A stretch of DNA of 46,996 nucleotides from a virus (taxonomy: Duplodnaviria; Caudoviricetes): positions 1 through 46,996 of the IMG/VR virus record IMGVR_UViG_3300012157_000003, one strand, 5' to 3'. The stretch's first letter is position 1, and each line of letters begins with the position of its first letter. Shown one piece after another: positions 4,286 to 46,497 of this stretch. The notes beneath the pieces were generated by a model. The model was given only the letters and a program-made list of their open reading frames with translations. It did no database searches and was not told where the DNA came from. The position numbers were made by a program, and so were the translations under genes.

Positions 4286-5548
4286 ATGTTTGATTTTCCA
4301 ATGTTACAGGGGTTGGGGCAATTAACTCAACAACCACAAGTTCAAGCTCCCCCGCGAATGAATATGCCTTTGTTAAATATTCCTATGCTTGGTGGAACAC
4401 CTGAGCCCGAGGATAATATTACAAGCTTAATGAATCAGCTCTATAATCCTCAAATGGGTATGCAGAATCAGTATAATGAGCTAATTCAAAATTATCCACA
4501 AAGAGAGCAACCTAGTGGTTGGAGAAGATTTGGTGCAGCTCTTTATGGAATGGGACGGGAAGATCCATTAAAAGCTGCTGATCAGTTTAATAACTATCAT
4601 TACTATCAGAATCTTAGTGATTGGAATAATCAAGCTAAGAACTTACAAATGGCTGCTGATAATGAGCGAGCTCAGAATATTAATGAGCGTCAAATTGCTT
4701 ATCAGACGGCTGGAAGAACATTAGAGGAAAGGCGTATTAAAGAGACCGAAAGAAAGAATCTAGAAACTGAGGATCTTAAGAGAAAGACTGAAGATAGAAG
4801 AGCTCAGAGTGCTAGGATTCTTGATCATATTAGAATGAATCCTAATTTCGTACCACGAGAGATTAATGGGGAATTAGTATTTTTTGATCCCCGTACTGGA
4901 GATACGCAATCTACTGGATTTAAAGGATTGTCTGATCAAGAAAGATTAGATATCCAAAATGCTGCAGCAATGGCTAGAACTAAGTATTCTGCAGATTCTG
5001 CTACTGAACGTACAGGAATGACTATTGCAGGTCAAGCTGATAGACAACAGGTTGGAGCCTGGAATGTTGTAGAAGTTGATGATCCCAATAATCCTGGTAA
5101 GAAGAAGACCGTTAGAATGAATACGATTACTGGGGCTATTAGTGATTTACCTGTTACAGGCGCGAGGCGTATTGGAACAGGTGCAGGATCAGGTGGAGAT
5201 CCTAATTTAGCTGAATCTCGAGCGCGTTATGTAAGAGCTCAAGAAGCTAAGATGAAACCGGGATGGAGTAAATATGTAACTCTTGGACCTAATAATACAG
5301 TTACTATCCAACCACCTGGAATATTCTCAGGTCCTGATGCTAAAACCCATAAAGAAATTAGTGACTTTATTCTTGGTACTACTATGCCAGCTAATATGGC
5401 TGCGCCGGGTAGAACTAGTGGGCCATTAAAAGTTAATCCCCCGGGAGCTAGCAATACTACTGCACCAACTATTAGACGTCAAAGAAATAACCGTACTGGT
5501 GAAGTTAGAGTTTCTTATGATGGTGGAAAGACGTGGAGTAACCAATAA
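4286..5548 (+). CDS. Internal virion/DNA-ejection protein 2
   Basis: M/Q/P-rich N-terminus and coiled-coil middle; strong RBS AAGGAGGT; synteny. Confidence 0.6.
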   Translation: MFDFPMLQGLGQLTQQPQVQAPPRMNMPLLNIPMLGGTPEPEDNITSLMNQLYNPQMGMQNQYNELIQNYPQREQPSGWRRFGAALYGMGREDPLKAADQFNNYHYYQNLSDWNNQAKNLQMAADNERAQNINERQIAYQTAGRTLEERRIKETERKNLETEDLKRKTEDRRAQSARILDHIRMNPNFVPREINGELVFFDPRTGDTQSTGFKGLSDQERLDIQNAAAMARTKYSADSATERTGMTIAGQADRQQVGAWNVVEVDDPNNPGKKKTVRMNTITGAISDLPVTGARRIGTGAGSGGDPNLAESRARYVRAQEAKMKPGWSKYVTLGPNNTVTIQPPGIFSGPDAKTHKEISDFILGTTMPANMAAPGRTSGPLKVNPPGASNTTAPTIRRQRNNRTGEVRVSYDGGKTWSNQ

Positions 5549-7700: not shown

Positions 7701-7883
7701 ATGATTGGTTTATTGCTCACGTTAGCTGTTATCGGGTTTATTGTTTGGTTAATCGTAACCTACATCCCAATGCCGGATGTATTTCAAAAAGGGATTATCG
7801 TTATTGCGGTAATCTTTGTACTACTTTACGTGCTTAACGCGCTTGGTGTTGTTGGACCCGAGATTCCTAGACTTAATAGGTAG
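7701..7883 (+). CDS. Small two-helix membrane protein (Thivi_2564-like)
   Basis: Two hydrophobic helices flanking YIPMP. Confidence 0.65.
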   Translation: MIGLLLTLAVIGFIVWLIVTYIPMPDVFQKGIIVIAVIFVLLYVLNALGVVGPEIPRLNR

Positions 7884-8195
7884 GCGTGTAGTTATGTTTT
7901 GCATGTGGGGTAGTAATTCCTCATTATGCATAATAGCAAATAAGTTCCATGCGGTATGAGCTAAATGGTCCTCACTTGTATCACCAGCTAAATACTTGTT
8001 GATATGAGTGAGGGCATGATTTAGTAGGTTTTTAGTAGGAATACCTTTAAGCCAATTCTCATCCCCATATTTAAGAGAACCCTCACCATAAGTTTCTGCT
8101 AGTCTTCTCATACCTACGGGAGTAATTAAATCAAACCTCGCAATTGAATCCTCCTTACCTCTTACAGCCCCAGATTTAAACTTTGTAAGTTTCAT
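7821..8195 (-). CDS. dATP/dGTP diphosphohydrolase domain protein (DUF5664)
   Basis: Motifs FKSGAVR, RFDLI, GSLKYGDENWLKGIP and EDHLAHTAWN. Confidence 0.85.
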   Translation of the reverse strand: MKLTKFKSGAVRGKEDSIARFDLITPVGMRRLAETYGEGSLKYGDENWLKGIPTKNLLNHALTHINKYLAGDTSEDHLAHTAWNLFAIMHNEELLPHMQNITTRLPIKSRNLGSNNTKRVKHVK

Positions 8196-8383
8196 TATTC
8201 GTTCTCCAGAAACGGTAATCTAATTGTTGTCTTCAATCGCCTTCTCTTTTCTCGTTCATAGTTCGCACGCTTTAATCTACATTTAAAACAGATAGAGTAA
8301 TCCTTATCTCTTTCTCCCTTGGGATTGAAACATTCAGGGCATCTCCCTTCTTCTAATGCTTTATCGTATAGGACTTTATACAT
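8195..8383 (-). CDS. Small zinc-finger protein
   Basis: CPEC...CFKC followed by a basic helix. Confidence 0.6.
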   Translation of the reverse strand: MYKVLYDKALEEGRCPECFNPKGERDKDYSICFKCRLKRANYEREKRRRLKTTIRLPFLENE

Positions 8384-9911
8384 CTTCTTCTATTAGCCTG
8401 GTAAGCATATCAATTTCCGATTTAGCAAACACTGGCATTTCGTATTTTAGTTTTTGAATTAGATCTTGAGTACTTCCTGTATCCCAATAAGAAAATCTAT
8501 TAGGTCTGCCAGGTATTTTCGAGTACATATCTTCAAGTACCATGTAGAGAATTGGATGTGCGCTCATCCCATTAGCTCTTAAATCAGAGAAAGGCATAAT
8601 CCCAATAATCTTGTACTTGTCAATGAGTTCTTCATAGACGGGAACACACTCAATAATCTCATCTTCTTCCCAAATGCCCTGGTCATAGAACATTAGAGTC
8701 GCGACGATAGGAAGTTTATAAGCTGTTAGAATATTCATCATCTTTGTTAATCTTACTTCTAATTTCGAGACAGATTCACCCACTCTTCTATAACATTTAG
8801 CCCCCAGAAAAGTCTGATTACTAACGAGAAAAGCAGGAATAGCACTTGGCCAATTATCAGCGTCGTAATAATATATGATGGGTTTATTGGGCCATGTGTT
8901 TTGTATTTCCCTAAATTTATCACGCTTATCGTTAATACTTGAACCACCACAATGGACGTAATAGTAAAGAGTTCGATTGTCATACTGTTTGACCACTTCA
9001 ATGGGGGTATCCTCTCCAAGAATTAGTGGTAATTCTTTAGGTACTTTAGATAGAGCTCGGTAATCAGGAAAACATACATTACCAATGAATCTATCGGTTG
9101 TAACGATTTGTCCATTCTTAAAATTGTGTGTATCATAAGGAGCACAAATCATTAATCGAGGATATTTCTCGATAAGTTGAGATGGTTCTGGTATTGGCTT
9201 CTCAATAGGGGTAAATTGATCGGATGTAACAAAGAATGTTTTAGCATCTTCAGGTAGGGAAATTGATACTGTGCAAGTGTTATCATCATGCTCAACAATT
9301 GTACAGCCTACTTGAGTTTTTACTTGGGCTACTAGGTATAGCTTCTCAGCAACAGAATCATAAGCGATAATATCTTTATCAGAAGCGGTATGGAGACCCA
9401 CTCCCCATTTACCACTTGTTCTATAACGGGCTAGATGATAGTCTTGAATAGTAACGAGACCAACAGCATCAGTAAATAAATCCCATCCAGCAAATCCTTG
9501 AGATGTTCTATTATCAGGTAGAGGAATTGGATTTTTACTTAATTGATCTCCATTAGTATTAAATAGGTAATAATCAGGATGACAATCAGTAATAAGAATA
9601 TGGGCTGAATTAATCCATACACCCCACATACCGCAGCCAGCTCGTAGTTTCTTCTCTACTTTGCCAGTTTCTTTACAAACTAAGAAAGTACATTGGTCCT
9701 TAGCAAGATTAGCAGATGACATAAGGATGGCATAATGTTTATCATCAATTATGTCAGCCTTCATGTAATAGCCCTTGATATTCTCGTTAGGTACATCTTG
9801 AGGTAAAGGTATTACAGGATCATTACCAAAACGAACTTCACCTAGAATACCTTTACCCCATGAAGAACTAACACGTACTTTATCTACTGTTGTATCAGTA
9901 AAGAAGTTCAT
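8376..9911 (-). CDS. Hypothetical two-domain protein (beta-rich N-half, PIPEP linker, alpha/beta C-half)
   Basis: 511-aa ORF with RBS GAGG, directly downstream of the tRNA. Confidence 0.6.
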   Translation of the reverse strand: MNFFTDTTVDKVRVSSSWGKGILGEVRFGNDPVIPLPQDVPNENIKGYYMKADIIDDKHYAILMSSANLAKDQCTFLVCKETGKVEKKLRAGCGMWGVWINSAHILITDCHPDYYLFNTNGDQLSKNPIPLPDNRTSQGFAGWDLFTDAVGLVTIQDYHLARYRTSGKWGVGLHTASDKDIIAYDSVAEKLYLVAQVKTQVGCTIVEHDDNTCTVSISLPEDAKTFFVTSDQFTPIEKPIPEPSQLIEKYPRLMICAPYDTHNFKNGQIVTTDRFIGNVCFPDYRALSKVPKELPLILGEDTPIEVVKQYDNRTLYYYVHCGGSSINDKRDKFREIQNTWPNKPIIYYYDADNWPSAIPAFLVSNQTFLGAKCYRRVGESVSKLEVRLTKMMNILTAYKLPIVATLMFYDQGIWEEDEIIECVPVYEELIDKYKIIGIMPFSDLRANGMSAHPILYMVLEDMYSKIPGRPNRFSYWDTGSTQDLIQKLKYEMPVFAKSEIDMLTRLIEEDV

Positions 9912-9930
9912 TTATACCTCGCGCTTTTAG

Positions 9931-10017
9931 TGGTGCCATGAGAGGGACTCGAACCCTCAATCCCGTAAGGGCCTAGGATTTTAAGTCCTATGCGTATACC
10001 AATTCCGCCATCATGGC
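9931..10017 (-). tRNA. trnL: tRNA-Leu, anticodon TAA, with encoded CCA
   Basis: Reverse complement reads GCCATGA...TAGGA-CTTAAAA-TCCTA, long variable arm, GAGGG-TTCGAGT-CCCTC, TCATGGC-A-CCA. All stems pair; 87 nt. Confidence 0.97.
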
Positions 10018-10025
10018 TATGTTAA

Positions 10026-10181
10026 CTAAGCATCAAGTTTCTTATGCCACTTAGTATGATCTTTTAAATAGAGCGCGTATATGTTGGCATAACAGATGGG
10101 ACATACAAACTGGTTATCATGTATTGTTTTCCACTCTGCATCCTTATCTAACTTCTCTTTTTCTTTGGCTGTTAATGGCAT
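10026..10181 (-). CDS. 51-aa C2H2-type zinc-finger protein (not in ORF track)
   Basis: Hand translation MPLTAKEKEKLDKDAEWKTIHDNQFVCPICYANIYALYLKDHTKWHKKLDA; fills the gap between the DUF3987 gene and the tRNA. Confidence 0.65.
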   Translation of the reverse strand: MPLTAKEKEKLDKDAEWKTIHDNQFVCPICYANIYALYLKDHTKWHKKLDA

Positions 10182-10183
10182 GA

Positions 10184-11395
10184 TTATTTACCTCTGAAAT
10201 ATTTCTTAAGAATTTCTACCTGTTCCTCTTGCATTACGTAGGTGATAATATTACCCATAGCTTCACTTCTTATAGCCTTAGCAATTTCAAGCTGTTCACA
10301 AATCTTATCCCACTCCTCATGAGACGCGTGCATGTAGTATTTGTTGTTAAGTTGCTCGCGAGTTATTGTGTGATTAGGTCTATCTAGTAGTTCTAGTATG
10401 AGCAATTTTTTATGTTCAGCAAAAGATGATTTACCAGAGCCGAGTGTAGTACGCCTTACATTGCCAATAAGTTTAGAACATCTATCAATAGATTGCTCCA
10501 TAGCAGAGATTGATATTTCTAACTTAGGTTCCTGACTTAAGGATATTAACATAGCTACTTTCATTACTGATTCGCTATGTCGGTTCAGGGTACCTGTAGC
10601 ATCCTTCATATCAGTTAAATCCACCTGTTTAATAAAGTCATGATACCAGTCATGATAAAGCCTACCCACAGGGTTAGAAGTATTAAGCTCAAGAAAACCA
10701 CCCTTGAGCTTTGAAAGCTCTTTAAGGTAAACGGCAAGAGCTTTATAATTAGGTATAACGCTGGGGCGATCGATAAGAGCATTAGCAAGATTGCGCTTAT
10801 TTTCATGAATAATAAAAGAGCGTGCGATAAAGCCTCCATTTATATCCTTCTTTGAAAAGAATACCTCGGAGTGCGCGTTATTAATACCACCGAGTATTAC
10901 GAAGTTAGGTTTCTTAAGAGTAAAGAATTCCATCTTAAGGATAGACTCATAATCAGCATGACGATAGGAGCGATCATAAACGTCAGTAAGAATATCAAGA
11001 GAAGCCTTGTCTTCTACAAGAGATGAACTTAATTCACTAGCACAAATAAAAGCAGAAGTATCAACTTTTATTCCTGTTGGTGAACTAGGGTCAGATTTAC
11101 CCGTAGAAATAAGTTTCATTATTCCCTGAATAGATGAGCGCCCTGCTATAACGTGAGTATTATTTATCTCCTTTACGAGCTGAGCGGCCATAGAAATAGG
11201 CGGTCCTTTTTTAAGACCGGAGTCAGCATGTAAGATAACATAGATGTTAGGGTAAGAATCGTATAACCCTGCGCGAGGGAGAAATACATTATCTTTTACT
11301 ATAGCACTTATCGAAGCTAATGCCGCCCAATACCAAAATTCAAGTGGTGTTTCATATTCTTTATGCTGCTCGACTACAAGATCAAGCCATGTCAT
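10184..11395 (-). CDS. DUF3987 (YfjI-like) P-loop helicase-like replication protein with C-terminal winged helix
   Basis: Motifs ETPLEFWYWAALASIS, PNIYVILHADSGLKKG (degenerate Walker A), ICASELSS and GGFIARSFII. Confidence 0.75.
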   Translation of the reverse strand: MTWLDLVVEQHKEYETPLEFWYWAALASISAIVKDNVFLPRAGLYDSYPNIYVILHADSGLKKGPPISMAAQLVKEINNTHVIAGRSSIQGIMKLISTGKSDPSSPTGIKVDTSAFICASELSSSLVEDKASLDILTDVYDRSYRHADYESILKMEFFTLKKPNFVILGGINNAHSEVFFSKKDINGGFIARSFIIHENKRNLANALIDRPSVIPNYKALAVYLKELSKLKGGFLELNTSNPVGRLYHDWYHDFIKQVDLTDMKDATGTLNRHSESVMKVAMLISLSQEPKLEISISAMEQSIDRCSKLIGNVRRTTLGSGKSSFAEHKKLLILELLDRPNHTITREQLNNKYYMHASHEEWDKICEQLEIAKAIRSEAMGNIITYVMQEEQVEILKKYFRGK

Positions 11396-11592
11396 TTTGA
11401 TTTAACAGCAAAATTATAGATCTTTTGATATGCTTGAAACGCTAAAGTAGATTCCTGAGATACATAAGCATTATCCCATACTTCTACGAGCGCAAGGCAT
11501 TCTGGTTTGGTTAGTAAGAGATTAGTTTTGCTTACAAGTTCCAAACATCTAGCATCAAAAATTTCTTCAATCTCTTCTTTAATTTTGCTCAT
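11392..11592 (-). CDS. Hypothetical protein
   Basis: 66-aa ORF with ATGA overlaps on both sides. Confidence 0.55.
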   Translation of the reverse strand: MSKIKEEIEEIFDARCLELVSKTNLLLTKPECLALVEVWDNAYVSQESTLAFQAYQKIYNFAVKSK

Positions 11593-11771
11593 GATGTCTT
11601 ATCCGTATAGATACGTTCTAGAATATCTTCCTGCTTATCACTAATCCAAGAGCGTTGTGAGAAAAACTCAGTAACAGATTCCATGAAGTCTAGTTCCCAT
11701 TTTGAGAGGTTAACTCCATTTTCATTTACGTGATCAATCCATTGTTGAATAACCTCTTTATCCTTTGTCAT
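11589..11771 (-). CDS. Small phage protein (LSxWExDF...SDKQ type)
   Basis: LSKWELDFMESV...ISDKQEDILERIY pattern, common in phage replication modules. Confidence 0.65.
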   Translation of the reverse strand: MTKDKEVIQQWIDHVNENGVNLSKWELDFMESVTEFFSQRSWISDKQEDILERIYTDKTS

Positions 11772-14280
11772 TAATCATCTCCTCAATCTTCCACTTAAAC
11801 TTCTTAAGATCCTTATAGTTGTATCCTTCTTCTACCTCGCAAGGGATAGAAAGTAATCCACGAGGTAAAGAGCAATTACGAAAATCAATAGGTTTCTCAA
11901 GTTCTTCCTTAAGGATTTGCGCCGCCTCGATTTCACGCTCGATTGGAACTTGTACCATAAGCGCATCATGTGACTCTATTAGGATATCTATCCAAGGTGC
12001 TCTCCCTTGTATCTCATGTTCCTCACAACCTTTAATTCTAAGCGCGGCGCCTTTAGTATTTTCACTGACAATTCTCTGTGGCAATGAGCTATAAGCTTGT
12101 CTAAATAATTCATCTCCCCAACGCTCAAAGAAGATTCTTTTTCCGCCTTGAGATGCTTTAATTCCATGAGGAACTGGAGCGATAAGGAATCTGTCTCGTT
12201 CAAGACAATTAATAATTCCATTATGAAACACACCTCTTATCTTAGGTTGCATTGCGTGGAAGGTTCGCAAAGCATCTTCTGCTTTTCCCTCGGTGATAGA
12301 GATATTAACTTTATATTTTCTTGCATCAGTATTAACCGTAGTGGCAGCGCGTTTTGCTCTTGCTCCAAGATGCCCTGCATGGCGTAATGTTTTACCCACG
12401 AATCGCTCAGGTACTTCGTATCCGAGAATCTTCTTAGAATATTTAGCTTCATCCCCACCGAAAAACCATGAAGTGGTGAGAGCATGGTAATCGATTTTAT
12501 TAAGAAGTTCGAGGGCTTCATAATCTGTAGCAAGTAAGAAGACCACTCTAGTTTCAGCTTGTTCTGAGTCAGCTTGTAAAAATACATGACCAGGATCAGG
12601 TACTAACATCTTACGGATATCAGCACCAATGTCTCCATGTTTAGTAATGGTTTGAAAAGCCATTCCTCGCGATTGATGTTTCTTAGTTTTCTTACCATCC
12701 TCAATAGCATGATATTCTATATCAGGTCTAATAGGTGGATCTTGTTGTGATGTAGATGAGCGACCTGTATCTAAGCATAGGAAGTACGAAGTTCTCATCC
12801 TTCCATCAAAATCTGGAAGAGCATATGCGTAGGATGATAGAGTCTTTCTTACCTTTCTATCCTCAAGAATAAGCTCTATGCCCTTTGCATAATTAGGCTT
12901 ATTCTCCATATACTTAGTATCTAAGATAGCACTTAATACTTCCTCACCTACACCCTTGCGTTCGGGTAGTTTCCATTCTTCATAAAGTAGCTTAGCTACT
13001 TGCTTAGGAGAGTTAACATTTACTGGATGACCTGCTAGTTTAAATATCTCGTATCTTAATTTCTCATCCATCTCTATATATTTGAGGATGACTTCTTTTC
13101 TAAATTCACTATCAAGGTTAATTCCTTTGTTTTCAATACCTGCATACACCACTTGGAGCGGGAGGAGAAAGTTTTTGTAATACTGTTCTGTACCAATATC
13201 TTTAAGGTCTTCATCTGTGTTAATGTCAACCTCTTTGGTACAACAAGCGTCACGTGCGCATCCAAGTAATAGGTCGGATACTTCACCTTCATACATTCCC
13301 TCATTTTTATAGAAAGGTTCCTCGGTGTAGACGGAGGTAAGATATGCTAGATTTTTAGGGAGTTCAGGATACATTGCAAATGCTTTGAGCATTGTATCTG
13401 AGTGAATCTTCTTAATACGAAACCCAAACCTCTTAAGTTTATCTCGGTCATAGCCAATGTTCTGCCCTACTATATCATGATTCGCGAGGAACTCAGCTAA
13501 CATCCCGTAAATAGTAGCAAGGCTACTAGTAGGAATACTAGATACACCAAAGCAATTCCATAAAGGTATACATATTCCATCATGTGGAGTAAAAGCAATC
13601 CCAACACAAATAGGAATGCATTGCCAAGCCTCGATATCGATCGCAGGATATAGATACCCTTTATTTCTATCCAAGAATTCTTTAAACTCATGCGGTGAGC
13701 TTATAACTTTTAGGCTTCGCTGTGGGAGCCTTATATCTTTGAATTCACTTTGTTTCTTTACACGTACAAGGTCTGTTTGTAGGATATTCTTCGCCCAATA
13801 TCCTCCAGCCTCTCCTCCAGAGTATAATATGTGCGCTGGATGGTATGAACCTACCGTTTTTATCCCTCCAACACCACTCAGAATGCTTCCTCTCCAATCT
13901 TCTATGCCACTCTTTCCAGTTGTTGCCCATAGAGCTGTTCCTCCTAGAGGAACTATAATATTGGGTTGAAGATGTAAGAGTTCTTTACGGAGATTCTCTA
14001 ATTCTTTTGTTAAATCTACTCCACTAGTGTGAGCTCTGACTGCAAAAGGTATTTGCTTTTCTCCCTTTCGGTTTGGTGTAACATAGTACTTACATACGTT
14101 AGTAACCCAACAATTACTACGAGAGATACCAACGTCGGATAGTAAACTATTAAGTAATTTACCACTGGCGCCAACAAACGGTTTGAGAGCAAGTAATTCT
14201 TCATGGCCTGGAGATTCTCCTACAAAAACTATCTTAGGGTTTATAGGTCCTTCACCGGGTACATATGTTTTAGAGTCCAT
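11758..14280 (-). CDS. polA: Family A DNA polymerase with N-terminal family-4-like uracil-DNA glycosylase domain and 3'-5' exonuclease (SPO1-type architecture)
   Basis: UDG motifs VPGEG, VGESPG, PFVGASG, TNVCK and YHPA. Exonuclease motifs DIE, QNIGYD and HSDTM. Polymerase motifs TGR, A (ADSEQAETR), B (RFVGKTLRHAGHLG) and C (SHDAL). Confidence 0.93.
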   Translation of the reverse strand: MDSKTYVPGEGPINPKIVFVGESPGHEELLALKPFVGASGKLLNSLLSDVGISRSNCWVTNVCKYYVTPNRKGEKQIPFAVRAHTSGVDLTKELENLRKELLHLQPNIIVPLGGTALWATTGKSGIEDWRGSILSGVGGIKTVGSYHPAHILYSGGEAGGYWAKNILQTDLVRVKKQSEFKDIRLPQRSLKVISSPHEFKEFLDRNKGYLYPAIDIEAWQCIPICVGIAFTPHDGICIPLWNCFGVSSIPTSSLATIYGMLAEFLANHDIVGQNIGYDRDKLKRFGFRIKKIHSDTMLKAFAMYPELPKNLAYLTSVYTEEPFYKNEGMYEGEVSDLLLGCARDACCTKEVDINTDEDLKDIGTEQYYKNFLLPLQVVYAGIENKGINLDSEFRKEVILKYIEMDEKLRYEIFKLAGHPVNVNSPKQVAKLLYEEWKLPERKGVGEEVLSAILDTKYMENKPNYAKGIELILEDRKVRKTLSSYAYALPDFDGRMRTSYFLCLDTGRSSTSQQDPPIRPDIEYHAIEDGKKTKKHQSRGMAFQTITKHGDIGADIRKMLVPDPGHVFLQADSEQAETRVVFLLATDYEALELLNKIDYHALTTSWFFGGDEAKYSKKILGYEVPERFVGKTLRHAGHLGARAKRAATTVNTDARKYKVNISITEGKAEDALRTFHAMQPKIRGVFHNGIINCLERDRFLIAPVPHGIKASQGGKRIFFERWGDELFRQAYSSLPQRIVSENTKGAALRIKGCEEHEIQGRAPWIDILIESHDALMVQVPIEREIEAAQILKEELEKPIDFRNCSLPRGLLSIPCEVEEGYNYKDLKKFKWKIEEMINDKG

Positions 14281-14519
14281 TATGAATCAAGTTCCTTAAG
14301 AAAGTTTGCGATCTCTCTTAAGCATATCATATCAAAAACTATTGTATCACCTGCTGTGCTAAACACATACTTATTCCAATCTTCATAATAATTTATCCAT
14401 CCAAGATTTACGCCCTTTTTATTCCAAACTCTATAATTTCTAGGAGAGATTGCAGCAACTCTAGTTTGTGCTTCAACCTCTTCAAATCTCAGAAACTTTG
14501 TAGTTTTAATTATATTCAT
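14280..14519 (-). CDS. Hypothetical protein
   Basis: Listed ORF 14280..14567; ATG at 14519 avoids overlap with the upstream gene. Confidence 0.55.
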   Translation of the reverse strand: MNIIKTTKFLRFEEVEAQTRVAAISPRNYRVWNKKGVNLGWINYYEDWNKYVFSTAGDTIVFDMICLREIANFLKELDS

Positions 14520-14520
14520 A

Positions 14521-14760
14521 TTAGGATACCTTAAGAATCTTAAGAGCTTTCTTACGTGAGCTAACACGTTTAATTCTATTCATGTTACGAGCAAGTCTAA
14601 GATTCTCACTCGCGAGTCCAGTCGAAGTTTTAAAGTACTTCGCTGTATGTTCTAGCTTATGATCTTTATTCTTAGATTTCATAACAACATGATAGAGATA
14701 CATAACACGTACTCTGCCTTGCCAAGTAGAACATTGAGAATACTTCTCTTTGTAGGTCAT
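14521..14760 (-). CDS. Small basic HTH protein resembling a ParB-type HTH without the CTPase domain
   Basis: LEHTAKYFKTSTGLASENLRLA helix-turn-helix pattern. Confidence 0.5.
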   Translation of the reverse strand: MTYKEKYSQCSTWQGRVRVMYLYHVVMKSKNKDHKLEHTAKYFKTSTGLASENLRLARNMNRIKRVSSRKKALKILKVS

Positions 14761-15110
14761 TAGCCGTTCAACGATTTGAATTCACCACAATTAACGTCTA
14801 CTTCATTATTTGTTTTCTGCCAGAGTTTCCAAATAAAATCTATAACTCCGGCTTGAACGATTTTCCAAATATCAGAATGGGTAGTAAAGTTATTCGGAAT
14901 TTGGATTGCATAGTAGGGAATAAGTGGGTTATCTAACTTATCATATTGAACCTTGGGGATAATATAAGCAATCTTAAAATCTTCTGTCTTACCTTCTTTA
15001 GTTCTTACTTCAAAAGTACATTGCCCATCAGCTCTATAAAACTGAAGCCCATCTCCTAATATAGGACGGCACGATTCCATTAGAAATTCAAGATGTTCTT
15101 GAGGAGTCAT
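14760..15110 (-). CDS. Hypothetical protein
   Basis: 116-aa ORF coupled to both neighbours. Confidence 0.55.
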   Translation of the reverse strand: MTPQEHLEFLMESCRPILGDGLQFYRADGQCTFEVRTKEGKTEDFKIAYIIPKVQYDKLDNPLIPYYAIQIPNNFTTHSDIWKIVQAGVIDFIWKLWQKTNNEVDVNCGEFKSLNG

Positions 15111-15382
15111 TAATCTATTACCTCAATTTTAATAGCACGCCAGCCCTTATCCTCAAACTTAACGAGATCAAATCTTACCTTAGTACCTTTAGTAAGTTCT
15201 TTAAAGTTTAGGGTATTAGGTAACAAGGCAGTCCAATGGAAAAAGATTCTCGTATAAGGTTTAGCCCGCGAGGCAATAAAACCAAATCCACCTTTACCCT
15301 CTTCATCAAAAATCTTAGAGATGGTTCCTTCAATACGTTCAATCTTAGTTGTATCTAGTGGGATAACTTCGGCTTCTTTCAT
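15110..15382 (-). CDS. Cold-shock domain (OB-fold) nucleic-acid-binding protein
   Basis: RNP1 GFGFI, RNP2 IFFHWTAL, and FKELTKGTKVRF...KGWRAIKI. Confidence 0.85.
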   Translation of the reverse strand: MKEAEVIPLDTTKIERIEGTISKIFDEEGKGGFGFIASRAKPYTRIFFHWTALLPNTLNFKELTKGTKVRFDLVKFEDKGWRAIKIEVID

Positions 15383-15396
15383 TATGTATCCTATAT

Positions 15397-15475
15397 AAAA
15401 AAGAGGATGTGCAGCGTTTGAGTTTGTCTATGGCAATGATACCATGTTAATCAAACTTACTACTGCACACCCTAT
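15397..15475 (-). terminator. Long hairpin followed by a U-tract upstream of the cold-shock gene
   Basis: Minus strand AGGGTGTGCAG..TAAGTTTG..ATGG..CCAT..CAAACTCA..CTGCACATCCT followed by CTTTTTT. Confidence 0.55.
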
Positions 15476-15532
15476 CCATCCGATTCGTTAACAAATAGCT
15501 CAGAGTAGAGCTAGTGAACTTCTATTACCTAG

Positions 15533-15721
15533 TTACTCGTCATTGCTATTAGGATCATCGGATGAATCTTCGTCATTAAGATCATCATCGTCATCGTCAT
15601 CAAGATCTACTTCTTCTTCATCAGACTTCTTAGGCTTTTCCTCAACATCATCCTTATCAGGATCTACATTGGGAGGAAATTCTTCTTCATTTTCAGGAGC
15701 GATACCGTAAAGGTTTTCCAT
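15533..15721 (-). CDS. Very acidic 62-aa protein
   Basis: About half the residues are D/E; fits the operon spacing. Confidence 0.6.
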   Translation of the reverse strand: MENLYGIAPENEEEFPPNVDPDKDDVEEKPKKSDEEEVDLDDDDDDDLNDEDSSDDPNSNDE

Positions 15722-15724
15722 TAG

Positions 15725-15943
15725 TTAATCACTCTCAATCTTGTTGATAAAGTCTCTAACTTCTTCACTAGCATCATACATCTTAATAGCATAATTAGCT
15801 TTATCGAGTGCGGATTGTGCTCTATTTCTTTCTATTACCATACGTTCTCTGAAAGGTAATGGTCTTTGTTGTTGTTGTGGAGGAAATCCCTGATTAGGTA
15901 ATCCCCTATTTAACATTGCTGCAATATTGGGTGGAATTGGCAT
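15725..15943 (-). CDS. Hypothetical P/Q-rich protein
   Basis: 72-aa ORF with RBS AAGGA. Confidence 0.6.
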   Translation of the reverse strand: MPIPPNIAAMLNRGLPNQGFPPQQQQRPLPFRERMVIERNRAQSALDKANYAIKMYDASEEVRDFINKIESD

Positions 15944-15969
15944 TTAGTTTCCTTTTAAATTAAAAAATG

Positions 15970-16134
15970 CTATTGATAACCAGTTCCATCCCAACCACCA
16001 GCACCACATCCTCCAATAATACAACCCCGTATAATAATTCTAATCCATGTAGCTAAAGTAATAAAGTTTACGCTGCAAAGAAGGCCAATTCCCATAAGAG
16101 CAATAGCTGTCTCAATCTTACGTGCTTTAGTCAT
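15970..16134 (-). CDS. 54-aa single-helix membrane peptide with Gly/Cys-rich tail (not in ORF track)
   Basis: Hand translation MTKARKIETAIALMGIGLLCSVNFITLATWIRIIIRGCIIGGCGAGGWDGTGYQ; RBS GGAG. Confidence 0.55.
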   Translation of the reverse strand: MTKARKIETAIALMGIGLLCSVNFITLATWIRIIIRGCIIGGCGAGGWDGTGYQ

Positions 16135-16273
16135 TATGTTCTCCAAAAGTTAAAGTTAAAAGATGCTCGCTGGATGAACCCCACCCTGACATAGTGTCTA
16201 GTTATTCCGAGCGTATTACCCTAGCATCCAGTTATTGTTACCTAATCATCTAGACGATGTTAGAAGGTAACAA

Positions 16274-16672
16274 CTACTCCGCTGGTGCTGCCCTATAACT
16301 ACCCTTTACCTGATTCTGAAGTCTTCCATCAAACTCACCATTGCCAATGAATACAACAATTTTCTTATTGGCAACGGCACTCCAATCAAGTTTAGTACCT
16401 TCTTCGATTGTTACTCCAAGAGCTGCAAAGAATGGAATCATAAAATCAGGACGCTTTGAGTTAAAGGTCCAGAATGGAAGTGGAACTCCTGCAAACTGAG
16501 TACTTCCATTATCTGCATCCTTAATGATTTCCGCATCATCAATGATGTAGTTCTTTGACTTACCATCCTTTGACATTGCTTCACTAACAGTATTGATTGT
16601 CACGAGATAGTTAGAAGGGGTGACAATCTGCGAACGAAGCATGTCCTTCTTGGAGAATTGAATTACTGACAT
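16274..16672 (-). CDS. DUF669-like single-stranded DNA-binding protein
   Basis: Y-x-V-x-I start, SKDGKSKN and EFDGRLQNQV end; directly follows the AAA_24 gene. Confidence 0.65.
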   Translation of the reverse strand: MSVIQFSKKDMLRSQIVTPSNYLVTINTVSEAMSKDGKSKNYIIDDAEIIKDADNGSTQFAGVPLPFWTFNSKRPDFMIPFFAALGVTIEEGTKLDWSAVANKKIVVFIGNGEFDGRLQNQVKGSYRAAPAE

Positions 16673-16690
16673 TTTGTTTTTGTCCTTTGT

Positions 16691-17521
16691 TTATATTGGT
16701 GTTAGTTGGTTTGTTGTTGGGAGTGATGTGGTTGAGCCAGCCATAAGCGATTTAATAGCAGGCTCGATGAAAGTAGGATACAATTGTTGGTCTTTGAATT
16801 TGATTTCGCGAGGCAAAGGGAGAGCAGTACGTGCAAAATCTTCACCTGTGTGCGAAGTAAAGATCCTATAGTCACCTTCCTCCCCCGATACGAGAGCTTT
16901 GGTAATATCAAAATGATATACCTCACGACAAACCGCAGGAATCATACCTGAGATTTGCTTACCCCCCGTAATAATAATTCTTGCATGAGCGGTAACACCA
17001 ACTTCATCAGACTTACGTTCACCAACTACGTGAGCAATAAGGATTACGTTAGTATCGTTCAGCTCAATCATATCTTGGCAGTTAGACATAATTTCTTGGA
17101 AGGCAGCGAACTCCGCTTTATAATCTTCCATTGTATTAACTGCGATTCCACCTACACGGCGACCAGATTCCTCACCAGATTTATTAGTGGAACCTTTCTT
17201 ATCACCTCGCGTTTGTTTATTAATGATAAGACCTGCGAGAGTAACAGAGTCAATAATAACTGTACGAAATGGGCAATTAAGTCTTAGCTGTTCTAGTTTA
17301 TTAATCAGCTTATAGTGCTCACTATAATCATCGTAGTTAATTTTTGACTTATCGATCCCCCATTTTTTAGCAGGAAGAGCTAGAGCACTCATCTTTCTAT
17401 CGGTACTAAACCAATATTGTGGCCCTGGCCAAGTCATAGCTTGAGTAGATTTACGAGTTCCAGGTTCACCCTTGAACATAGCGAACATCTTAGAAGGATC
17501 AACATCATTTAGGGTTGGCAT
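16691..17521 (-). CDS. AAA_24 / Sak4-like recombination ATPase
   Basis: Walker A GEPGTRKST, Walker B TVIIDSVT, and NVILIAH. Confidence 0.85.
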   Translation of the reverse strand: MPTLNDVDPSKMFAMFKGEPGTRKSTQAMTWPGPQYWFSTDRKMSALALPAKKWGIDKSKINYDDYSEHYKLINKLEQLRLNCPFRTVIIDSVTLAGLIINKQTRGDKKGSTNKSGEESGRRVGGIAVNTMEDYKAEFAAFQEIMSNCQDMIELNDTNVILIAHVVGERKSDEVGVTAHARIIITGGKQISGMIPAVCREVYHFDITKALVSGEEGDYRIFTSHTGEDFARTALPLPREIKFKDQQLYPTFIEPAIKSLMAGSTTSLPTTNQLTPI

Positions 17522-17524
17522 TAT

Positions 17525-17776
17525 TTAATTCTCATGATTATGTTTAATATCTTTCTTTTCAATCATTTCAACAAGAGTTTCTACATGACAGACAAGACAA
17601 GAGTTAGAAAGAATCTCATTATCTTTTCCCTTATGTATCATAACCACGTAGTGAACATCTTCAACATCAGCGATTGCCATGAAATCCTTAAGAGAATCCT
17701 TAAGATCCTCAAAAACTTCTGGTTCAAGATTTTTAAATAGCATCGTCGTGTCCAATATCCCAAGGCTTACCAACAC
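17525..17776 (-). CDS. Hypothetical protein (true start probably internal, at MLFKN)
   Basis: ORF fills the gap; CxxCH near the C-terminus. Confidence 0.5.
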   Translation of the reverse strand: MLVSLGILDTTMLFKNLEPEVFEDLKDSLKDFMAIADVEDVHYVVMIHKGKDNEILSNSCLVCHVETLVEMIEKKDIKHNHEN

Positions 17777-18638
17777 GGTATTGTGTTTGCTTTATTACTT
17801 CTCTATTAGCACGGTCGGATTCATCAATAGCATAGAAGTTACATTTACCGTATTGACCCTCACAATTATAGGTAAAAGGAAAATGACCAGCCTCAGTATA
17901 GGCTATTAACATACGAGCATGATGTGGTACGGTAACATTAGCCCATTCTGCTAGGCGGTCTACGGAATAAGGAATATAAACCCTTTGGAATTTTTCCTCT
18001 GGAGCTAAAGAAGTTTGCCAACCAATCTTATTAATCCGCACCTGACGCGAGGCCATAATAATACTTTGGCCCATAAATTGATTATTAAGAGATAACGTAT
18101 CTCTCCTTTGAGACATTGTTTTATGGTCAGTAGGTAAGAATCCCCCAGGAGTATCTTCGATAAGATCAAATTTTGCTTTCCAAAGAATCTGCATCTCATC
18201 ATCTTTATAAATCAAATGAGACTTAACACATTCCACACCTACGGGAGTAAAGCTATCATTGCGCCAAAAATCAAAATATTCATGCATAGTAGCAAACACA
18301 TAACGCCATCCAAGACGGTCTGGTTTCTTAGTAGATTCTTCTGGAGTATTGAGAATCCCAAGATGATCCTTTTCTTTAACATATTTATTAGTTTCTTTAT
18401 AGGCTACGAGATACTCTTTACCCGCCTCAAATCCAATATCAATAGCATCATTCCTATTCTTACCTTCAATTCGAGCTTTATAGAAAAACTCAAGAATTGT
18501 ATGGGTAAGAGAACCACATTCAAGAGAATTAGATTTACCTTCGTTCTTCTCTAGATTCTCATTGAATCTGTAGTTAAAAGCCGCAGGGCATTTCATCAAT
18601 GCCGTGAGAACCTGAGAATCCATTACTATGTGATGCAT
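17733..18638 (-). CDS. PD-(D/E)XK exonuclease (PDDEXK_1/Cas4-like)
   Basis: DSQVLTALMKCP, GSLTH, VE, AKFDLI, TDHKT and C-terminal C...C cluster. Confidence 0.85.
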   Translation of the reverse strand: MHHIVMDSQVLTALMKCPAAFNYRFNENLEKNEGKSNSLECGSLTHTILEFFYKARIEGKNRNDAIDIGFEAGKEYLVAYKETNKYVKEKDHLGILNTPEESTKKPDRLGWRYVFATMHEYFDFWRNDSFTPVGVECVKSHLIYKDDEMQILWKAKFDLIEDTPGGFLPTDHKTMSQRRDTLSLNNQFMGQSIIMASRQVRINKIGWQTSLAPEEKFQRVYIPYSVDRLAEWANVTVPHHARMLIAYTEAGHFPFTYNCEGQYGKCNFYAIDESDRANREVIKQTQYRVGKPWDIGHDDAI

Positions 18639-18639
18639 T

Positions 18640-18906
18640 TTAGAACCCGCCGTATTTATAAGCAGTACGCCGAGCAGTAACCATAAACATAAAAATTTTA
18701 GCTAACTCATCATTTCTTCCACACATACTTGAAACTACTACAAGCATGGCTTCAATATAAGAAGGATCGTTAGCAACTAAGTAATGTAGTTCCATTACTT
18801 TTTCCATATCCTTTTTATCTTGATTATGTTTGGGACCTAGAGATTCATGAGCCTCTATAATTCCTTTAGCATATTCAACAATTGAATCTTCAATAGTTTT
18901 ATTCAT
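18640..18906 (-). CDS. Hypothetical protein
   Basis: 88-aa coupled ORF. Confidence 0.55.
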   Translation of the reverse strand: MNKTIEDSIVEYAKGIIEAHESLGPKHNQDKKDMEKVMELHYLVANDPSYIEAMLVVVSSMCGRNDELAKIFMFMVTARRTAYKYGGF

Positions 18907-19115
18907 TTTTCACCTAACAGTTCATCAAAATCAATAGTTTCAAGAGGTATTTCATCTAATTCCATTTGCTGGAGCTTTTCTTCTAGCTTGACTTTACAAA
19001 CATCACACATATCCATATCAGCATCATGATTAATTGTGGGGCAAACAGCATTATCTACCTCACACTCGTAGGGGGACTTACAATATTTACAAATATGAAA
19101 CTTTTGGTAGCACAT
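18903..19115 (-). CDS. Cys-rich hypothetical protein
   Basis: CKYC, C...C and CDVC. Confidence 0.55.
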   Translation of the reverse strand: MCYQKFHICKYCKSPYECEVDNAVCPTINHDADMDMCDVCKVKLEEKLQQMELDEIPLETIDFDELLGEK

Positions 19116-19121
19116 TTTAGG

Positions 19122-19262
19122 TCAGTCTTTTAAAAAGAAAGATTTACTACAAACAGCACAAAGATAATAAGTCCCATTTATTACACGGAGAACAAGTTCT
19201 ATCAGAGTGATGTCTTCATTTTGACAATGAGGACACTTAGGTGGTGGGAGTTTTGGATTCAT
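19122..19262 (-). CDS. 46-aa zinc-ribbon protein (not in ORF track)
   Basis: Hand translation MNPKLPPPKCPHCQNEDITLIELVLRVINGTYYLCAVCSKSFFLKD; ATGA overlap with the helicase stop. Confidence 0.6.
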   Translation of the reverse strand: MNPKLPPPKCPHCQNEDITLIELVLRVINGTYYLCAVCSKSFFLKD

Positions 19263-21821: not shown

Positions 21822-21824
21822 GAT

Positions 21825-24205: not shown

Positions 24206-24225
24206 TTTGTAGCAAGACACTAATA

Positions 24226-30076: not shown

Positions 30077-30077
30077 A

Positions 30078-30482: not shown

Positions 30483-30673
30483 TGAGTTTATTACCACCAA
30501 CATGGGGTGACGTAGTTTCCGTAATAGTTTTTCTTGTTACGTTACATATGTATCATACTCGAAATGTTGCTCGGTTTGCTAAGTTGGAACTTAAGGTTGG
30601 TCTTATGTGGAGCCAACTTAAATCTAGATTAAATATTCATACGGATGATGAGGATGAAAATGGCGAAGGGTGA
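30479..30673 (+). CDS. Single-TM membrane protein (holin/antiholin-like)
   Basis: N-terminal hydrophobic helix, short coiled coil and acidic tail. Confidence 0.5.
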   Translation: MMSLLPPTWGDVVSVIVFLVTLHMYHTRNVARFAKLELKVGLMWSQLKSRLNIHTDDEDENGEG

Positions 30674-31790
30674 TTGGTGGAAACCTAAGCCGGTAAGATA
30701 TGCACTTGAAGTGCAATTAACTCCGGGTGTGTTTTCTGTTATTGATACGAATACTAATGAAGTTTATTATACTAATGATCAGGGTTATGTTCGTATTACC
30801 CAACCCCAAGGAAGAGAAGTAGATTTTACTTTAGTAGCTGATGGTTTTCATCCATATCATTTTGGTTGGCATTTTCCCATTCCTAATCATCGAATGGATC
30901 TTACGTTAGAACCTATTATCATTGTTCCTATTCCTGAACCTATCCCAGAACCAACTGGACCAATATTAGGTGATTGGTTAACTTGTCATCATCCTGATGG
31001 AAAAATTCTTTACCCATCAGTTTATCCTGTGGCTTCGCCAGAGTTAAGAGTAAGAATTATTGAAGCCCTAAAGCATAATAAGTATACAGATACATTTGTT
31101 GATGTAGCTTATAGTGCACGAAATAACGATGAAGTTTTTCAACATCCTGGTTGGAATTATTTAACTAGTGACCCACAGCCATTTATTGATGCATGTAATG
31201 AATTGCGTGCGCATGGTATTAGATGTATTGCAATGGTTGGTTATCAGAAAGATATTGCTCCCCCTTTTGATGAATTTAAAATTCAACTTGAAAACTTCCT
31301 TCAAAGAACTGGTAATTTGTTAAGTGGAGTAGTAGCAGGAGCAGAAGCTGAAGAATATTGGAAGTTTGATGAAATTGGAGAAGTTCTTAAACTTTCTGCG
31401 CAGTTTACTACAGGATTCTTAGGTTATCATGGTGGCAGAAATTCTTGGGGACCAGATGGTGGGCAATCTACAGAATGGAAACCAGGTGGTAGACAAGTTT
31501 CATGGTGGAAATGGTTGAAAGAACTAATTCCCAATAGGGAGTTATTACTGTTCTTTCAATATGACCACTTTATTAAGTACTCGAATGGGGGATTTTCAAC
31601 CTCCGATGCTCACATTATCGCGGATACTGAAATTTTAGTTACGCAAGAACGATTGGGTGGGTTAGGTATTAAGATTGTTGCAGCTGAACATAACTATCTT
31701 ACACCTGACCATATGAGTAAGCATTCTGGTAATGTAGCATTTAATGCCGGTGCAAGTGGCGGACGAATTAATGGAGGCTCCCTTCAATGA
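30660..31790 (+). CDS. MAKGD-start protein: small beta domain, PIPEPIPEP linker and putative glycoside-hydrolase-like TIM barrel
   Basis: ATG at 30660 after GAGGA; alternating beta/alpha pattern with Glu after strands (VVAGAEAEE, IVAAEH) as in clan GH-A. Confidence 0.55.
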   Translation: MAKGDWWKPKPVRYALEVQLTPGVFSVIDTNTNEVYYTNDQGYVRITQPQGREVDFTLVADGFHPYHFGWHFPIPNHRMDLTLEPIIIVPIPEPIPEPTGPILGDWLTCHHPDGKILYPSVYPVASPELRVRIIEALKHNKYTDTFVDVAYSARNNDEVFQHPGWNYLTSDPQPFIDACNELRAHGIRCIAMVGYQKDIAPPFDEFKIQLENFLQRTGNLLSGVVAGAEAEEYWKFDEIGEVLKLSAQFTTGFLGYHGGRNSWGPDGGQSTEWKPGGRQVSWWKWLKELIPNRELLLFFQYDHFIKYSNGGFSTSDAHIIADTEILVTQERLGGLGIKIVAAEHNYLTPDHMSKHSGNVAFNAGASGGRINGGSLQ

Positions 31791-32068
31791 ATAATGAATC
31801 GATTATTGCAATTGGTAGTGTGGTTGGAGCATTAAGTAAGTTTCTACAGATGACAACTTTTATTAAGGGCCCGTGGATTGTATTGGTTTCTATGCTTACA
31901 ACCACGTTAGTGTTTTCTATTTGGGGATATTCCCACGGTGATTTTGCTAGAGATACTACCTGGGATTATTTCACCGCTTGGGTTACGACATTAGGCTTAT
32001 CTGCTGCAGGCTATCATGGTACTGAGGAAGCAGTTAAGAAAGTTGTTGAAGTTAGTAATCGAGGTTAA
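31787..32068 (+). CDS. Holin-like membrane protein
   Basis: 93 aa, 2-3 hydrophobic helices and a charged C-terminus. Confidence 0.6.
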   Translation: MNNESIIAIGSVVGALSKFLQMTTFIKGPWIVLVSMLTTTLVFSIWGYSHGDFARDTTWDYFTAWVTTLGLSAAGYHGTEEAVKKVVEVSNRG

Positions 32069-32070
32069 TA

Positions 32071-32505
32071 ATGTATCAATATCAATCGTTCAAAGCAATG
32101 ATTGCATGCTGGGGAGTTGCATTAGTTATTGCATTAAGTATTAATGCTTGTGCAGGATTTAAGCCAGCAGTTAAGAGACTTGGTGATGCTACTTATGAAG
32201 CCGTATTAACCGCGAGGAATACAGCGGATAATATGGTTGCTAATGGTAGTATGAGTAAGATTCAAAGGCAAGAGTTTGCTAAGAATATTACTGTACCTAC
32301 CCTTACCATTCTTGAGCAAGCAATTATTGATACTCTTGCATGGAAAGAGGGAGAGCCTATTCCAGAGAACGTTAGTAGGTTAATAGGGCAACTAACTAAA
32401 AGTGCGGATGATATTCTAAAGACTTTTGGTAAAGATTCTAATCTCCATAGTAATATGCTAAAAGCTAAGAGTGCTGCGCAAGAATTCTTAGATAAGGTGC
32501 AATAA
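32071..32505 (+). CDS. Lipoprotein (possible spanin/lysis accessory)
   Basis: Hydrophobic stretch ending in lipobox-like INA-C; helical body. Confidence 0.6.
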   Translation: MYQYQSFKAMIACWGVALVIALSINACAGFKPAVKRLGDATYEAVLTARNTADNMVANGSMSKIQRQEFAKNITVPTLTILEQAIIDTLAWKEGEPIPENVSRLIGQLTKSADDILKTFGKDSNLHSNMLKAKSAAQEFLDKVQ

Positions 32506-32777
32506 TGACTAAAGAACAATTGGCAATTCTTGCATTGCAGGCGGGATTTGAAGCATTGTTAGGATTATTCCGTCGTCATCAACAGGGAGAAAATGTGACG
32601 GCGGATCTTGATGCATTGCTTAAGAAAGTTCAATCTCTTAAAGCAGAAGAAGAGTTTATTGCTAATGAAGATTTAGGTACGGGATCGGTTGGTAGTGATC
32701 CTAATCCTTTAATTAATCCTGGTAATAAGCCTCTAACTACTGAAGAATTAATCAAAGGTCTTAAAGTAGAAGACTAA
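32505..32777 (+). CDS. Hypothetical protein
   Basis: 90 aa with amphipathic N-terminal helix; coupled on both sides. Confidence 0.55.
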   Translation: MTKEQLAILALQAGFEALLGLFRRHQQGENVTADLDALLKKVQSLKAEEEFIANEDLGTGSVGSDPNPLINPGNKPLTTEELIKGLKVED

Positions 32778-44965: not shown

Positions 44966-46497
44966 AAGATTTAAGGGATCATCAGCCAGTTAGAATTGAA
45001 GAATTTAATGGCCTCTGGGCGCGAGGGGATAAAGAGTCATGCCCATTAGATCATGAAACTGACTGTAATAATGTGATCTCTTTTGAAGGGGGTTTTCGTA
45101 CAAGACCTGGAATAACACTTCATCAAATTGGAGATGATCCTAATAGTACTATTCCAAATCTCATTAGAGTTTATAAGTATGTTTATAGAAATACAGGCGA
45201 TGGCTTATTACTTCTTGATGCTCTAGGAAATATTTATCATTCTAAATCTCCTACTCCGCTTACACCTATTCTAACTATTGCAACAATGACGGATTTTTCC
45301 TATGTTTCAATGGGAGGAAGAGCTTATATTACTCCGCATGATGGAAGTACGGGGCTAGAAAATGAGTTCTTGTATGTATATCTTGGTGATGGAACTCCTG
45401 CGAGAAAAGCTGCTGGAGCTGGACCTACAACTGCACCGACAGTAGCTAATGGAGCATCTACTGGAACACAAGCAACTGAAGCTGGAATACATATTATTGC
45501 CGTTGCGTATGAAACTAATACGGGGTTCATTACTAAATCTAGTCCAAAAGTAGAATTAAGCGCGCCGGGGGGAGATGAAGTAGATATAACAAATATTCCA
45601 GTTTCGCCTGATAGTTTTGTAGTGAAAAGGCATATTCTTTCTAGCAAAGCTATTGATCCAGTAGACTATACTCAAAACATAGATGGGTACGAATTATTCT
45701 TTGTACCTAATGGAACGATTGAAAATAATACAGCAACGGCTTTAACTCTTAATTGGTTCGATGCGGAATTGTTGGAAAGTGCTGATTACTTAAATGATCT
45801 TTTTGAAGAGATTCCAGCATTCGTAAATTTAACTACCTATCATAATAGGCTTGTGGGTGTGGGAGAGTTTGGAGATCCATCTAGTGAAGAAACATATGGA
45901 TTGATTTCTACTGCAAGATTAAGTGCTCCAGGGCAACCAGAAGCAATAGATCAGATTAGTGGATTAATAGTTGTTCCACTTAATGGAGAGGCTTTAAGTA
46001 ATTGTCAGGAGTATAGGGATGTACTCTATTTATTCAAAGTAACTCAAACCCATGCTTATAATGATAACGGAGATGATCCAAGTTCGTGGCCCGGAGTAGT
46101 TATAGATCAGGGTGTGGGAGCAAGTATTCATGGAATTGCTTATGTTCTAGATAGTGGTGGAGTAAACATAGAGTATTTGTTAGTTATTGATTACTCCGGC
46201 GTGATGATGTTTGATGGTGCTTATAGGAGACCTGAGCTTTCATGGAAGATAAAAGATTTTTGGTTTGAATTGGATAGAGATGATTTCAAGAATATGCAAT
46301 TCATGAATGATTCTTTGACCCAATGGATATACATAAATCTTCCAAATAGAACATTGCTCGTAGGAGATTACACTACTCATCTTGACCCAGAAAAAATTAA
46401 ATGGTGGAAATGGACCTTTGATATCCAGGTCACAACAATTGCATTAATAGAAAAGAATAAACTTATTATCGGTTCGCGGGCTGAGTTAGAACCATGA
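44962..46497 (+). CDS. Tail hub/nozzle protein (P22 gp10-like beta-propeller)
   Basis: EEFNGL start, RTRPG, YHNRLV, SAPGQPE and WWKW; position after the adaptor. Confidence 0.7.
   Translation: MKDLRDHQPVRIEEFNGLWARGDKESCPLDHETDCNNVISFEGGFRTRPGITLHQIGDDPNSTIPNLIRVYKYVYRNTGDGLLLLDALGNIYHSKSPTPLTPILTIATMTDFSYVSMGGRAYITPHDGSTGLENEFLYVYLGDGTPARKAAGAGPTTAPTVANGASTGTQATEAGIHIIAVAYETNTGFITKSSPKVELSAPGGDEVDITNIPVSPDSFVVKRHILSSKAIDPVDYTQNIDGYELFFVPNGTIENNTATALTLNWFDAELLESADYLNDLFEEIPAFVNLTTYHNRLVGVGEFGDPSSEETYGLISTARLSAPGQPEAIDQISGLIVVPLNGEALSNCQEYRDVLYLFKVTQTHAYNDNGDDPSSWPGVVIDQGVGASIHGIAYVLDSGGVNIEYLLVIDYSGVMMFDGAYRRPELSWKIKDFWFELDRDDFKNMQFMNDSLTQWIYINLPNRTLLVGDYTTHLDPEKIKWWKWTFDIQVTTIALIEKNKLIIGSRAELEP

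Follow-up and report, generated by a model that had tools for sequence, protein, structure and literature searches.

CGCGAGG, a strand-polar seven-base word enriched in an uncultured sediment phage and its relatives, as a possible Chi-type signal

Why does one seven-base word recur throughout a phage genome in which about one copy would be expected by chance? The question is raised by the window analysed here, which is the whole stretch of 46,996 nucleotides of the virus record IMGVR_UViG_3300012157_000003 (Duplodnaviria; Caudoviricetes). The 47-kb record is rated 100% complete and represents an uncultured family, and we found no cultured relative. All 19 sequencing runs that contained about a fifth or more of its sampled words were labelled freshwater sediment, and five of these 19 may be the record's own source. 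An earlier note had reported 16 copies of CGCGAGG and nine of its complement CCTCGCG and proposed a positively maintained DNA signal.

All 25 positions given in that note are exact matches. On the plus strand of the window, hereafter the top strand and the orientation favoured across the lineage, CGCGAGG starts at 5161, 6575, 7353, 11272, 13483, 15267, 16807, 18046, 21770, 25661, 25959, 32211, 38708, 41671, 41741 and 45020. Bottom-strand sites, read as CCTCGCG on the plus strand, start at 7115, 9917, 12665, 17205, 25110, 25764, 33409, 40382 and 42444 (7115-42450). This makes CGCGAGG the top 7-mer of the window, with one site per 1.88 kb. The GC content is 38.2%, not about 36% as had been assumed, and the earlier estimate of about one expected site agrees with 1.0 under an order-2 Markov model and with one to two under codon-preserving shuffles. 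Higher orders predict 2.6 (order 3) and 7.1 sites (order 4, P = 1e-7). An order-5 model (20 expected) is uninformative, since the word generates its own 6-mers. Sites lie inside genes in 23 of 25 cases, the intergenic ones being 9917 and 25110, and all six frame and orientation classes are occupied, as the mention of both orientations and different frames had implied. Codon shuffling from a genome-wide pool gave a mean of 1.0 and a maximum of 4 (300 shuffles), and shuffling within each gene a mean of 2.0 and a maximum of 6 (300 shuffles). With junction dinucleotides preserved as well, the enrichment persists (25 sites against a mean of 1.75 and a maximum of 7 in 1000 shuffles). The claim that codon bias does not explain the sites thus holds, with 25 sites against 1.0-2.0 in synonymous shuffles.

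The word is sharp in this genome, since its 21 one-mismatch neighbours each occur only 0-5 times. The CGCG core was counted 82 times against 44 expected, close to the 80 or so estimated by eye. The bottom strand holds 9 sites against about 0.5 expected, and the strand ratio of 16:9 is by itself not significant (P = 0.23). Use of the word in ribosome binding was rejected, as it fits only two of the 25 sites (9917 and 25959); site 9917 lies where the ribosome-binding site of the gene at 8376-9911 would be. Two second-tier words, AAGCGCG (12/5) and TACGGGG (9/3), were also seen, and a repeat search and Rfam returned nothing relevant for the window. The three large site-free gaps described before do exist, but they fall within random placement (P = 0.22). 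The gap said to run from 45.1 kb round to 5.1 kb is an assumption, because the window ends join out of frame and without a terminal repeat. The largest internal gap is occupied by tail-fibre and accessory genes (25974-32777) whose best homologs belong to the motif-negative relatives G007, G017, G018 and G027.

The genome consists of a leftward early arm and a rightward virion arm that diverge from a mostly non-coding region (23298-25437) with divergent sigma-70-like promoters at 23394 (minus), 23673 (plus) and 25353 (plus). This region may hold the genome ends or the origin. The first late gene (25438-25974, plus strand) encodes a putative small terminase (TerS), is universal in the family and has three sites inside and one upstream. 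The early or replication arm (7821-23297, minus strand) contains six top-strand and three bottom-strand sites. It encodes a DNA polymerase A with an N-terminal UDG-like domain (PolA-UDG; 11758-14280, minus strand), a SNF2 helicase, a cold-shock domain protein and a stand-alone DUF3987 protein (10184-11395, minus strand) without the primase domain that many related proteins carry as a fusion. Recombination genes at 16274-18638 (minus strand), for a 132-aa probably SSB-like protein, a Sak4-like annealing protein and a PD-(D/E)XK exonuclease, are present in all phage groups. The arm also carries tRNA-Leu(TAA) at 9931-10017 (minus strand). Since TTA is the commonest Leu codon of the phage and a tRNA for it is carried, these sequences hint that the host may be GC-richer than the phage. 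A segment at 7821-10181, shared with G007 only, encodes a dATP/dGTP diphosphohydrolase, a 511-aa protein without known function and two small proteins, and is possibly a base-modification or nucleotide-pool module. At 14521-14760 (minus strand) lies the small HTH gene that was earlier named as a possible reader. Contigs from two runs lack 374 bases at 14748-15123 and with them a 116-aa gene that lies between those for the cold-shock and HTH proteins.

Relatives comprised 38 genomes or fragments at first and 14 more added later, with the top strand set in each by PolA or terminase. CGCGAGG occurs at about 5-25 times chance in the window and dozens of distant relatives, mostly on one strand. Among 74 distinct PolA records, the 29 whose HTH has a canonical recognition helix contain 125 sites on the top and 43 on the bottom strand, where 18.3 would be expected for both together, the eight with a variant helix hold one on each strand (6.1 expected), and the 37 without the HTH gene hold 2 top-strand and 20 bottom-strand sites (41.2 expected). 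The word is degenerate across the lineage, with the consensus YGCG[A>T>G]GG. Main-clade genomes contain TGCGAGG 67/20 times (top/bottom) against 11/10 expected, CGCGTGG 64/21 against 9/7, and CGCGGGG 29/17, the variants being expected 3-11 times per strand.

Polarity follows the genome strand and not transcription. With transcription direction controlled in 15 genomes, the most genome-polar of 7,614 7-mers is CGCGAGG, and YGCGDGG favours the top strand in 15 of 15. The 27 held-out loci found later through the HTH gene, which were not de-duplicated, have 84 top-strand and 10 bottom-strand copies of CGCGAGG, where 5.3 would be expected on each strand. Four family words together favour the top strand in 25 of these loci, and the other two have no site. 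These four words, picked after data inspection, occur 70 times on the top and 8 times on the bottom strand of the early arm (seven complete genomes; one incomplete genome dropped), and 81 and 59 times outside it. One-strand spacing in the early arm is even at 1-2 kb (CV 0.51-0.68 in seven genomes, combined P = 5e-4), but spacing over the whole genome is not. Bottom-strand sites of the late arm are about 6-fold enriched (23 against 3.8 expected). When nine complete genomes are mapped with the putative TerS at the left, the final 40% of the map contains 49 of 86 top-strand sites, compared with 11 of 35 on the bottom strand, and the arm farthest from the putative terminase gene is thus the denser one.

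The sister clade without the HTH gene shows the opposite pattern on one strand. In the coding regions of 19 such genomes CGCGAGG occurs 2 times on the top strand against 17.0 expected and 15 times on the bottom strand against 18.2; these counts rest on greedy ORFs in related genomes, and the sites include one terminal duplicate and two pairs that look orthologous. It is the only one of 16,287 7-mers so depleted on one strand and near expectation on the other. A preference for the bottom strand is seen in eleven of these genomes and one for the top strand in none, and neighbouring GAGG words are not depleted. GCGCGT-type alternating words are 4-5-fold enriched on both strands of the HTH-less genomes, without clear polarity.

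Individual sites mostly turn over. Among 898 comparisons of sites between genomes with 70-75% nucleotide identity, whose pairs are not independent, 20% are identical and 31% stay within the word family, against 7% identical for matched GC-rich controls. Since sites are retained two to three times more than controls, they appear selected even though most turn over. On conservation in relatives, which the earlier note had put forward as a check, the word is enriched and retained above controls, but most single sites are not kept. Its proposal of a positively maintained signal stands on enrichment in relatives, on this retention and on the excess beyond codon bias. We conclude that CGCGAGG is a selected, strand-polar DNA signal. 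Not described in the note were the polarity between strands, the degenerate forms of the word in relatives, its avoidance on one strand by the sister clade and the words of other lineages.

These other words differ between lineages. GCG[G/A]CCG is enriched in G058 (21 vs 8) and G045, as is GCGGCCG in both, GCGCCCG is enriched in the HTH-bearing G057 and the HTH-less G037 and G035, and GCGCAGG is the lineage word of G006, G022 and G054. The genome G009 has another, CGGACTT, 16/18 times against about 2 expected and without polarity. Lineage words thus cut across both the phage tree and the presence of the HTH, which favours a reader outside the phage. Palindromes give a second signature. GATC is near-absent (observed/expected 0.00-0.05) in 17 of 18 main-clade genomes (G001, G003, G010-G012, G016, G022, G025, G038, G042, G045, G046, G053-G055, G057 and G058), and GTAC mostly so; in G059 the GATC ratio is 0.68. 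The window and the other clades keep both, and palindrome profiles place the window with its basal neighbours and not with the main clade. CGCG is above expectation in all 45 tabulated genomes and fragments (1.07-2.41), and CTCGAG is nearly absent family-wide. In the 62-kb record of G025 (L276-L279), which is probably a chimeric assembly, the replication region is present twice, in related copies of 75-93% identity, and so is the HTH gene.

Our preferred reading, which we hold tentatively, is that CGCGAGG could be a Chi-type control site of a RecBCD/AddAB-like helicase-nuclease of the host, which was not found. The genome ends would lie in the gap at 23.3-25.4 kb, and the host's end-processing enzyme, as the reader, would meet the word in its active orientation when entering from the early-gene end. 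Word-bearing lineages would use the word to turn degradation into recombination, the sister clade would have abandoned it and cleared its genomes of the active orientation, and the other words of other lineages would reflect other hosts. As reported for the Chi-rich phage LLS, 23 Chi sites occur at one per 1.86 kb, 20 of 23 in one orientation; half of them fall within the rightmost 22%, and the cluster is at the end away from the terminase genes (PMC12315714). The window phage resembles LLS, P1 and MD8 as portrayed there in having a short, G-rich, non-palindromic word as top over-represented oligomer at about one per 1.9 kb, with one orientation favoured, a higher density toward one end, an excess beyond codon usage and related phages with few sites (PMC12315714). 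Inhibitor-bearing lambdoids are described as having fewer Chi sites than expected (PMC12315714); no RecBCD inhibitor was identified in the avoiding clade. In sequence, GCGCGAGG agrees with the H. influenzae Chi, G(G/C)TGGAGG, at six of eight positions, and the L. lactis Chi GCGCGTG is contained in GCGCGTGG, as given in a published list of Chi sites (10.1101/2021.07.08.451572), a source that also calls computational Chi prediction unreliable.

Several points stand against a Chi-type site. Most Chi-rich lambdoids are reported to lack a Rec module (PMC12315714), whereas the Sak4-like and PD-(D/E)XK genes are present here. All groups encode Sak4 and the exonuclease, and the Chi reading leaves these phage recombination genes unexplained. 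Polarity in the window is weaker than in Chi-rich phages, at only 16:9, and the bottom-strand enrichment of the late arm is not accounted for, nor are the 4-5-fold GCGCGT-type words of the HTH-less genomes. Since the window keeps GATC and the main clade does not, the difference points to different hosts sharing one word. The sequence of the word, its lineage-specific alternatives and the strand-specific depletion in a sister clade also set this family apart from the Chi-rich phages.

Several routes to the host were followed. GTDB contigs gave terminase matches of only 29-38% (24 loci, almost all of them clostridial), a comparison of the capsid protein with 50,697 named phages gave no match, and the cold-shock domain had none on plasmids. 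A tRNA-Leu pattern recovered 71 metagenome loci, of which the non-phage ones differ from the phage tRNA at no fewer than 13 positions (ungapped count) and show no enrichment. Cluster look-ups returned no taxa. In a scan of 61 genomes from a single unrelated phylum, those with sizeable counts did not exceed the reversed control by more than about 2-fold.

The main rival reading, held with somewhat less confidence, is a reader encoded by the phage itself. The word would then be the operator of the 79-aa protein, which would coat the genome directionally and most densely over the early arm, and HTH-less phages would avoid the orientation in which the protein of a co-infecting relative could interfere. 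The AlphaFold model (pLDDT 96) is a four-helix HTH bundle without the ParB N-terminal domain. Its best PDB matches are Spo0J (Z 7.3), ParB-parS (Z 6.5) and KorB (Z 6.1) over 73-74 residues; the Spo0J match has an rmsd of 2.1 over 73 aligned residues, a middling Z, yet the top four are all of the ParB family. The HTH parts of phage ParB and ParB-methyltransferase fusions match at TM 0.78-0.86. The protein is thus predicted to have the fold of a ParB/KorB/Spo0J DNA-binding domain, a domain described as setting the sequence specificity of the ParB family (PMC7383237). As a modelled ParB-type fold with a conserved recognition helix, the protein resembles ParB/parS, KorB/OB and Noc/NBS proteins, which are reported to bind dispersed specific sites (PMC7383237), but it has neither an N-terminal CTPase domain nor a C-terminal dimer domain, and the word, unlike their sites, is a 7-bp non-palindrome that is polar and lies inside genes. 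The 56 window proteins gave no family match to ParA or ParB_N, and a ParABS partition system was rejected, as only the 79-aa ORF is there. Clustered palindromic parS sites were rejected as well, the word being dispersed, non-palindromic and without a palindromic flank. The stand-alone HTH family is large, with 519 clusters of which the best 150 are all 48-148 aa long, and no fusions of greater length were recovered when looked for, although this is weak as evidence.

Conservation within the protein is highest in the recognition helix. Among 47 non-redundant records, the 34 with a canonical helix and top-strand sites include every enriched record, and six with a variant helix have two sites in all. 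A canonical helix accompanies every enriched record but is not sufficient: 7 of 41 canonical-helix records have no top-strand site, including the complete genomes G059 and G028, four of the seven being 8-12 kb fragments. The HTH gene is also the best separator of the two clades and would explain the clade boundary, including the two top-strand sites in 37 HTH-less PolA records. An operator would further explain why the word is shared across different restriction signatures, since the window and L412 keep it in a GATC-keeping background. On the other hand, the correlation rests on about three independent events. G028, the nearest relative of the window (support 0.97), has an equally canonical helix and no site, and the HTH segment of the window (14 of 23 positions identical to the main-clade consensus) is no closer to it than those of G028 (14/23) or G007 (15/23). 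No single residue tracks the word: HTH position 38 (D/N) was rejected as determinant (P = 8e-4 overall, P = 0.21 within the GATC-free clade), and a column scan of core proteins gave ten scattered columns, none clean. Sites have no palindromic extension, and the HTH-less G037 and G035 own a strong word. A gene for a 60-aa protein (11589-11771 in the window) is clade-linked too, occurring in 13 of the 17 motif-positive genomes, 5 of the 10 discordant ones and 1 of the 20 others. Small proteins beside the HTH have a twin-arginine-like N-terminus in several main-clade genomes (L257:19410-19679 and equivalents). The small HTH pointed out in the earlier note is thus a real candidate reader, given its modelled ParB-type fold and its canonical helix in all enriched records. 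A fuller version, in which this widespread family of phages from sediment and soil marks its own genomes with a directional array of the 7-bp half-site of the stand-alone domain, spaced at 1-2 kb in the early arm, and sister phages that lost the protein purge it on that strand as a weapon between co-infecting relatives, we consider unlikely.

Start or loading signals for lagging-strand priming are improbable. A host primase or primosome would be the reader, because no primase catalytic domain was found among the 56 window proteins. The even one-strand spacing of the early arm and a DUF3987 protein without its usual primase partner would fit, but whole-genome spacing is uneven, the four words behind the early-arm figure were chosen after inspection, and the late arm has both orientations. 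Nor does priming explain why a clade that shares the replication genes avoids the word on one strand, and known DnaG sites measure about 3 nt against the 7-nt word.

A methyltransferase target, a HIP1-like repair-generated repeat or a head-to-head restriction site kept in one orientation is very improbable. One-strand avoidance is a product of type III restriction, as in T7 and EcoP15I, and the family-wide CGCG excess would suit such an origin. However, restriction predicts avoidance and not 25-fold enrichment on both strands. The methylation-linked mark and the HIP1-like repeat that had been proposed before are not supported: no methyltransferase was found among the 56 window proteins, the word is non-palindromic and polar, its A can be replaced, and near-miss words such as TGCGAGG and CGCGTGG are enriched in the main clade and not depleted. 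HIP1 of cyanobacteria is palindromic, and DNA-uptake sequences are longer and not genome-polar; like both, CGCGAGG is written into genes in all frames, but it has 7 nt, no palindrome and a polarity. Of the origins listed in that note, a Chi-like site and a protein-binding site fit best.

Least probable of all is programmed single-strand nicking of packaged DNA, as in T5, phiKMV and tf: tf offers a parallel, since its 46-kb genome is described as having arms that converge and as nicked 14 times at a dispersed, short, degenerate word, all on one strand and none on the other (PMC3517423), but here both strands are enriched, no conserved nickase was seen and the avoidance in the sister clade stays unexplained.

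A literature search for CGCGAGG or CCTCGCG together with 'motif' found nothing, and work on polar phage words, ParB-HTH fusions and primase arrays held no match to this system at the level of listings and abstracts. If the word is a Chi site, the kind of thing is known, and what is new is its sequence, the variety of words between lineages and the avoidance on a single strand; if the HTH protein is the reader, this would be a new kind of system. As the site of the ParB-type domain, the word would belong to a phage-encoded genome-marking system with a single 79-aa protein, which is easily tested. If it is Chi-like, as we tentatively prefer, the control sequence used by an uncultured host lineage could be read from these phage genomes, the lineage words together would become a tool for host assignment, and the family would allow one to test how the sign of selection on Chi depends on phage strategy.
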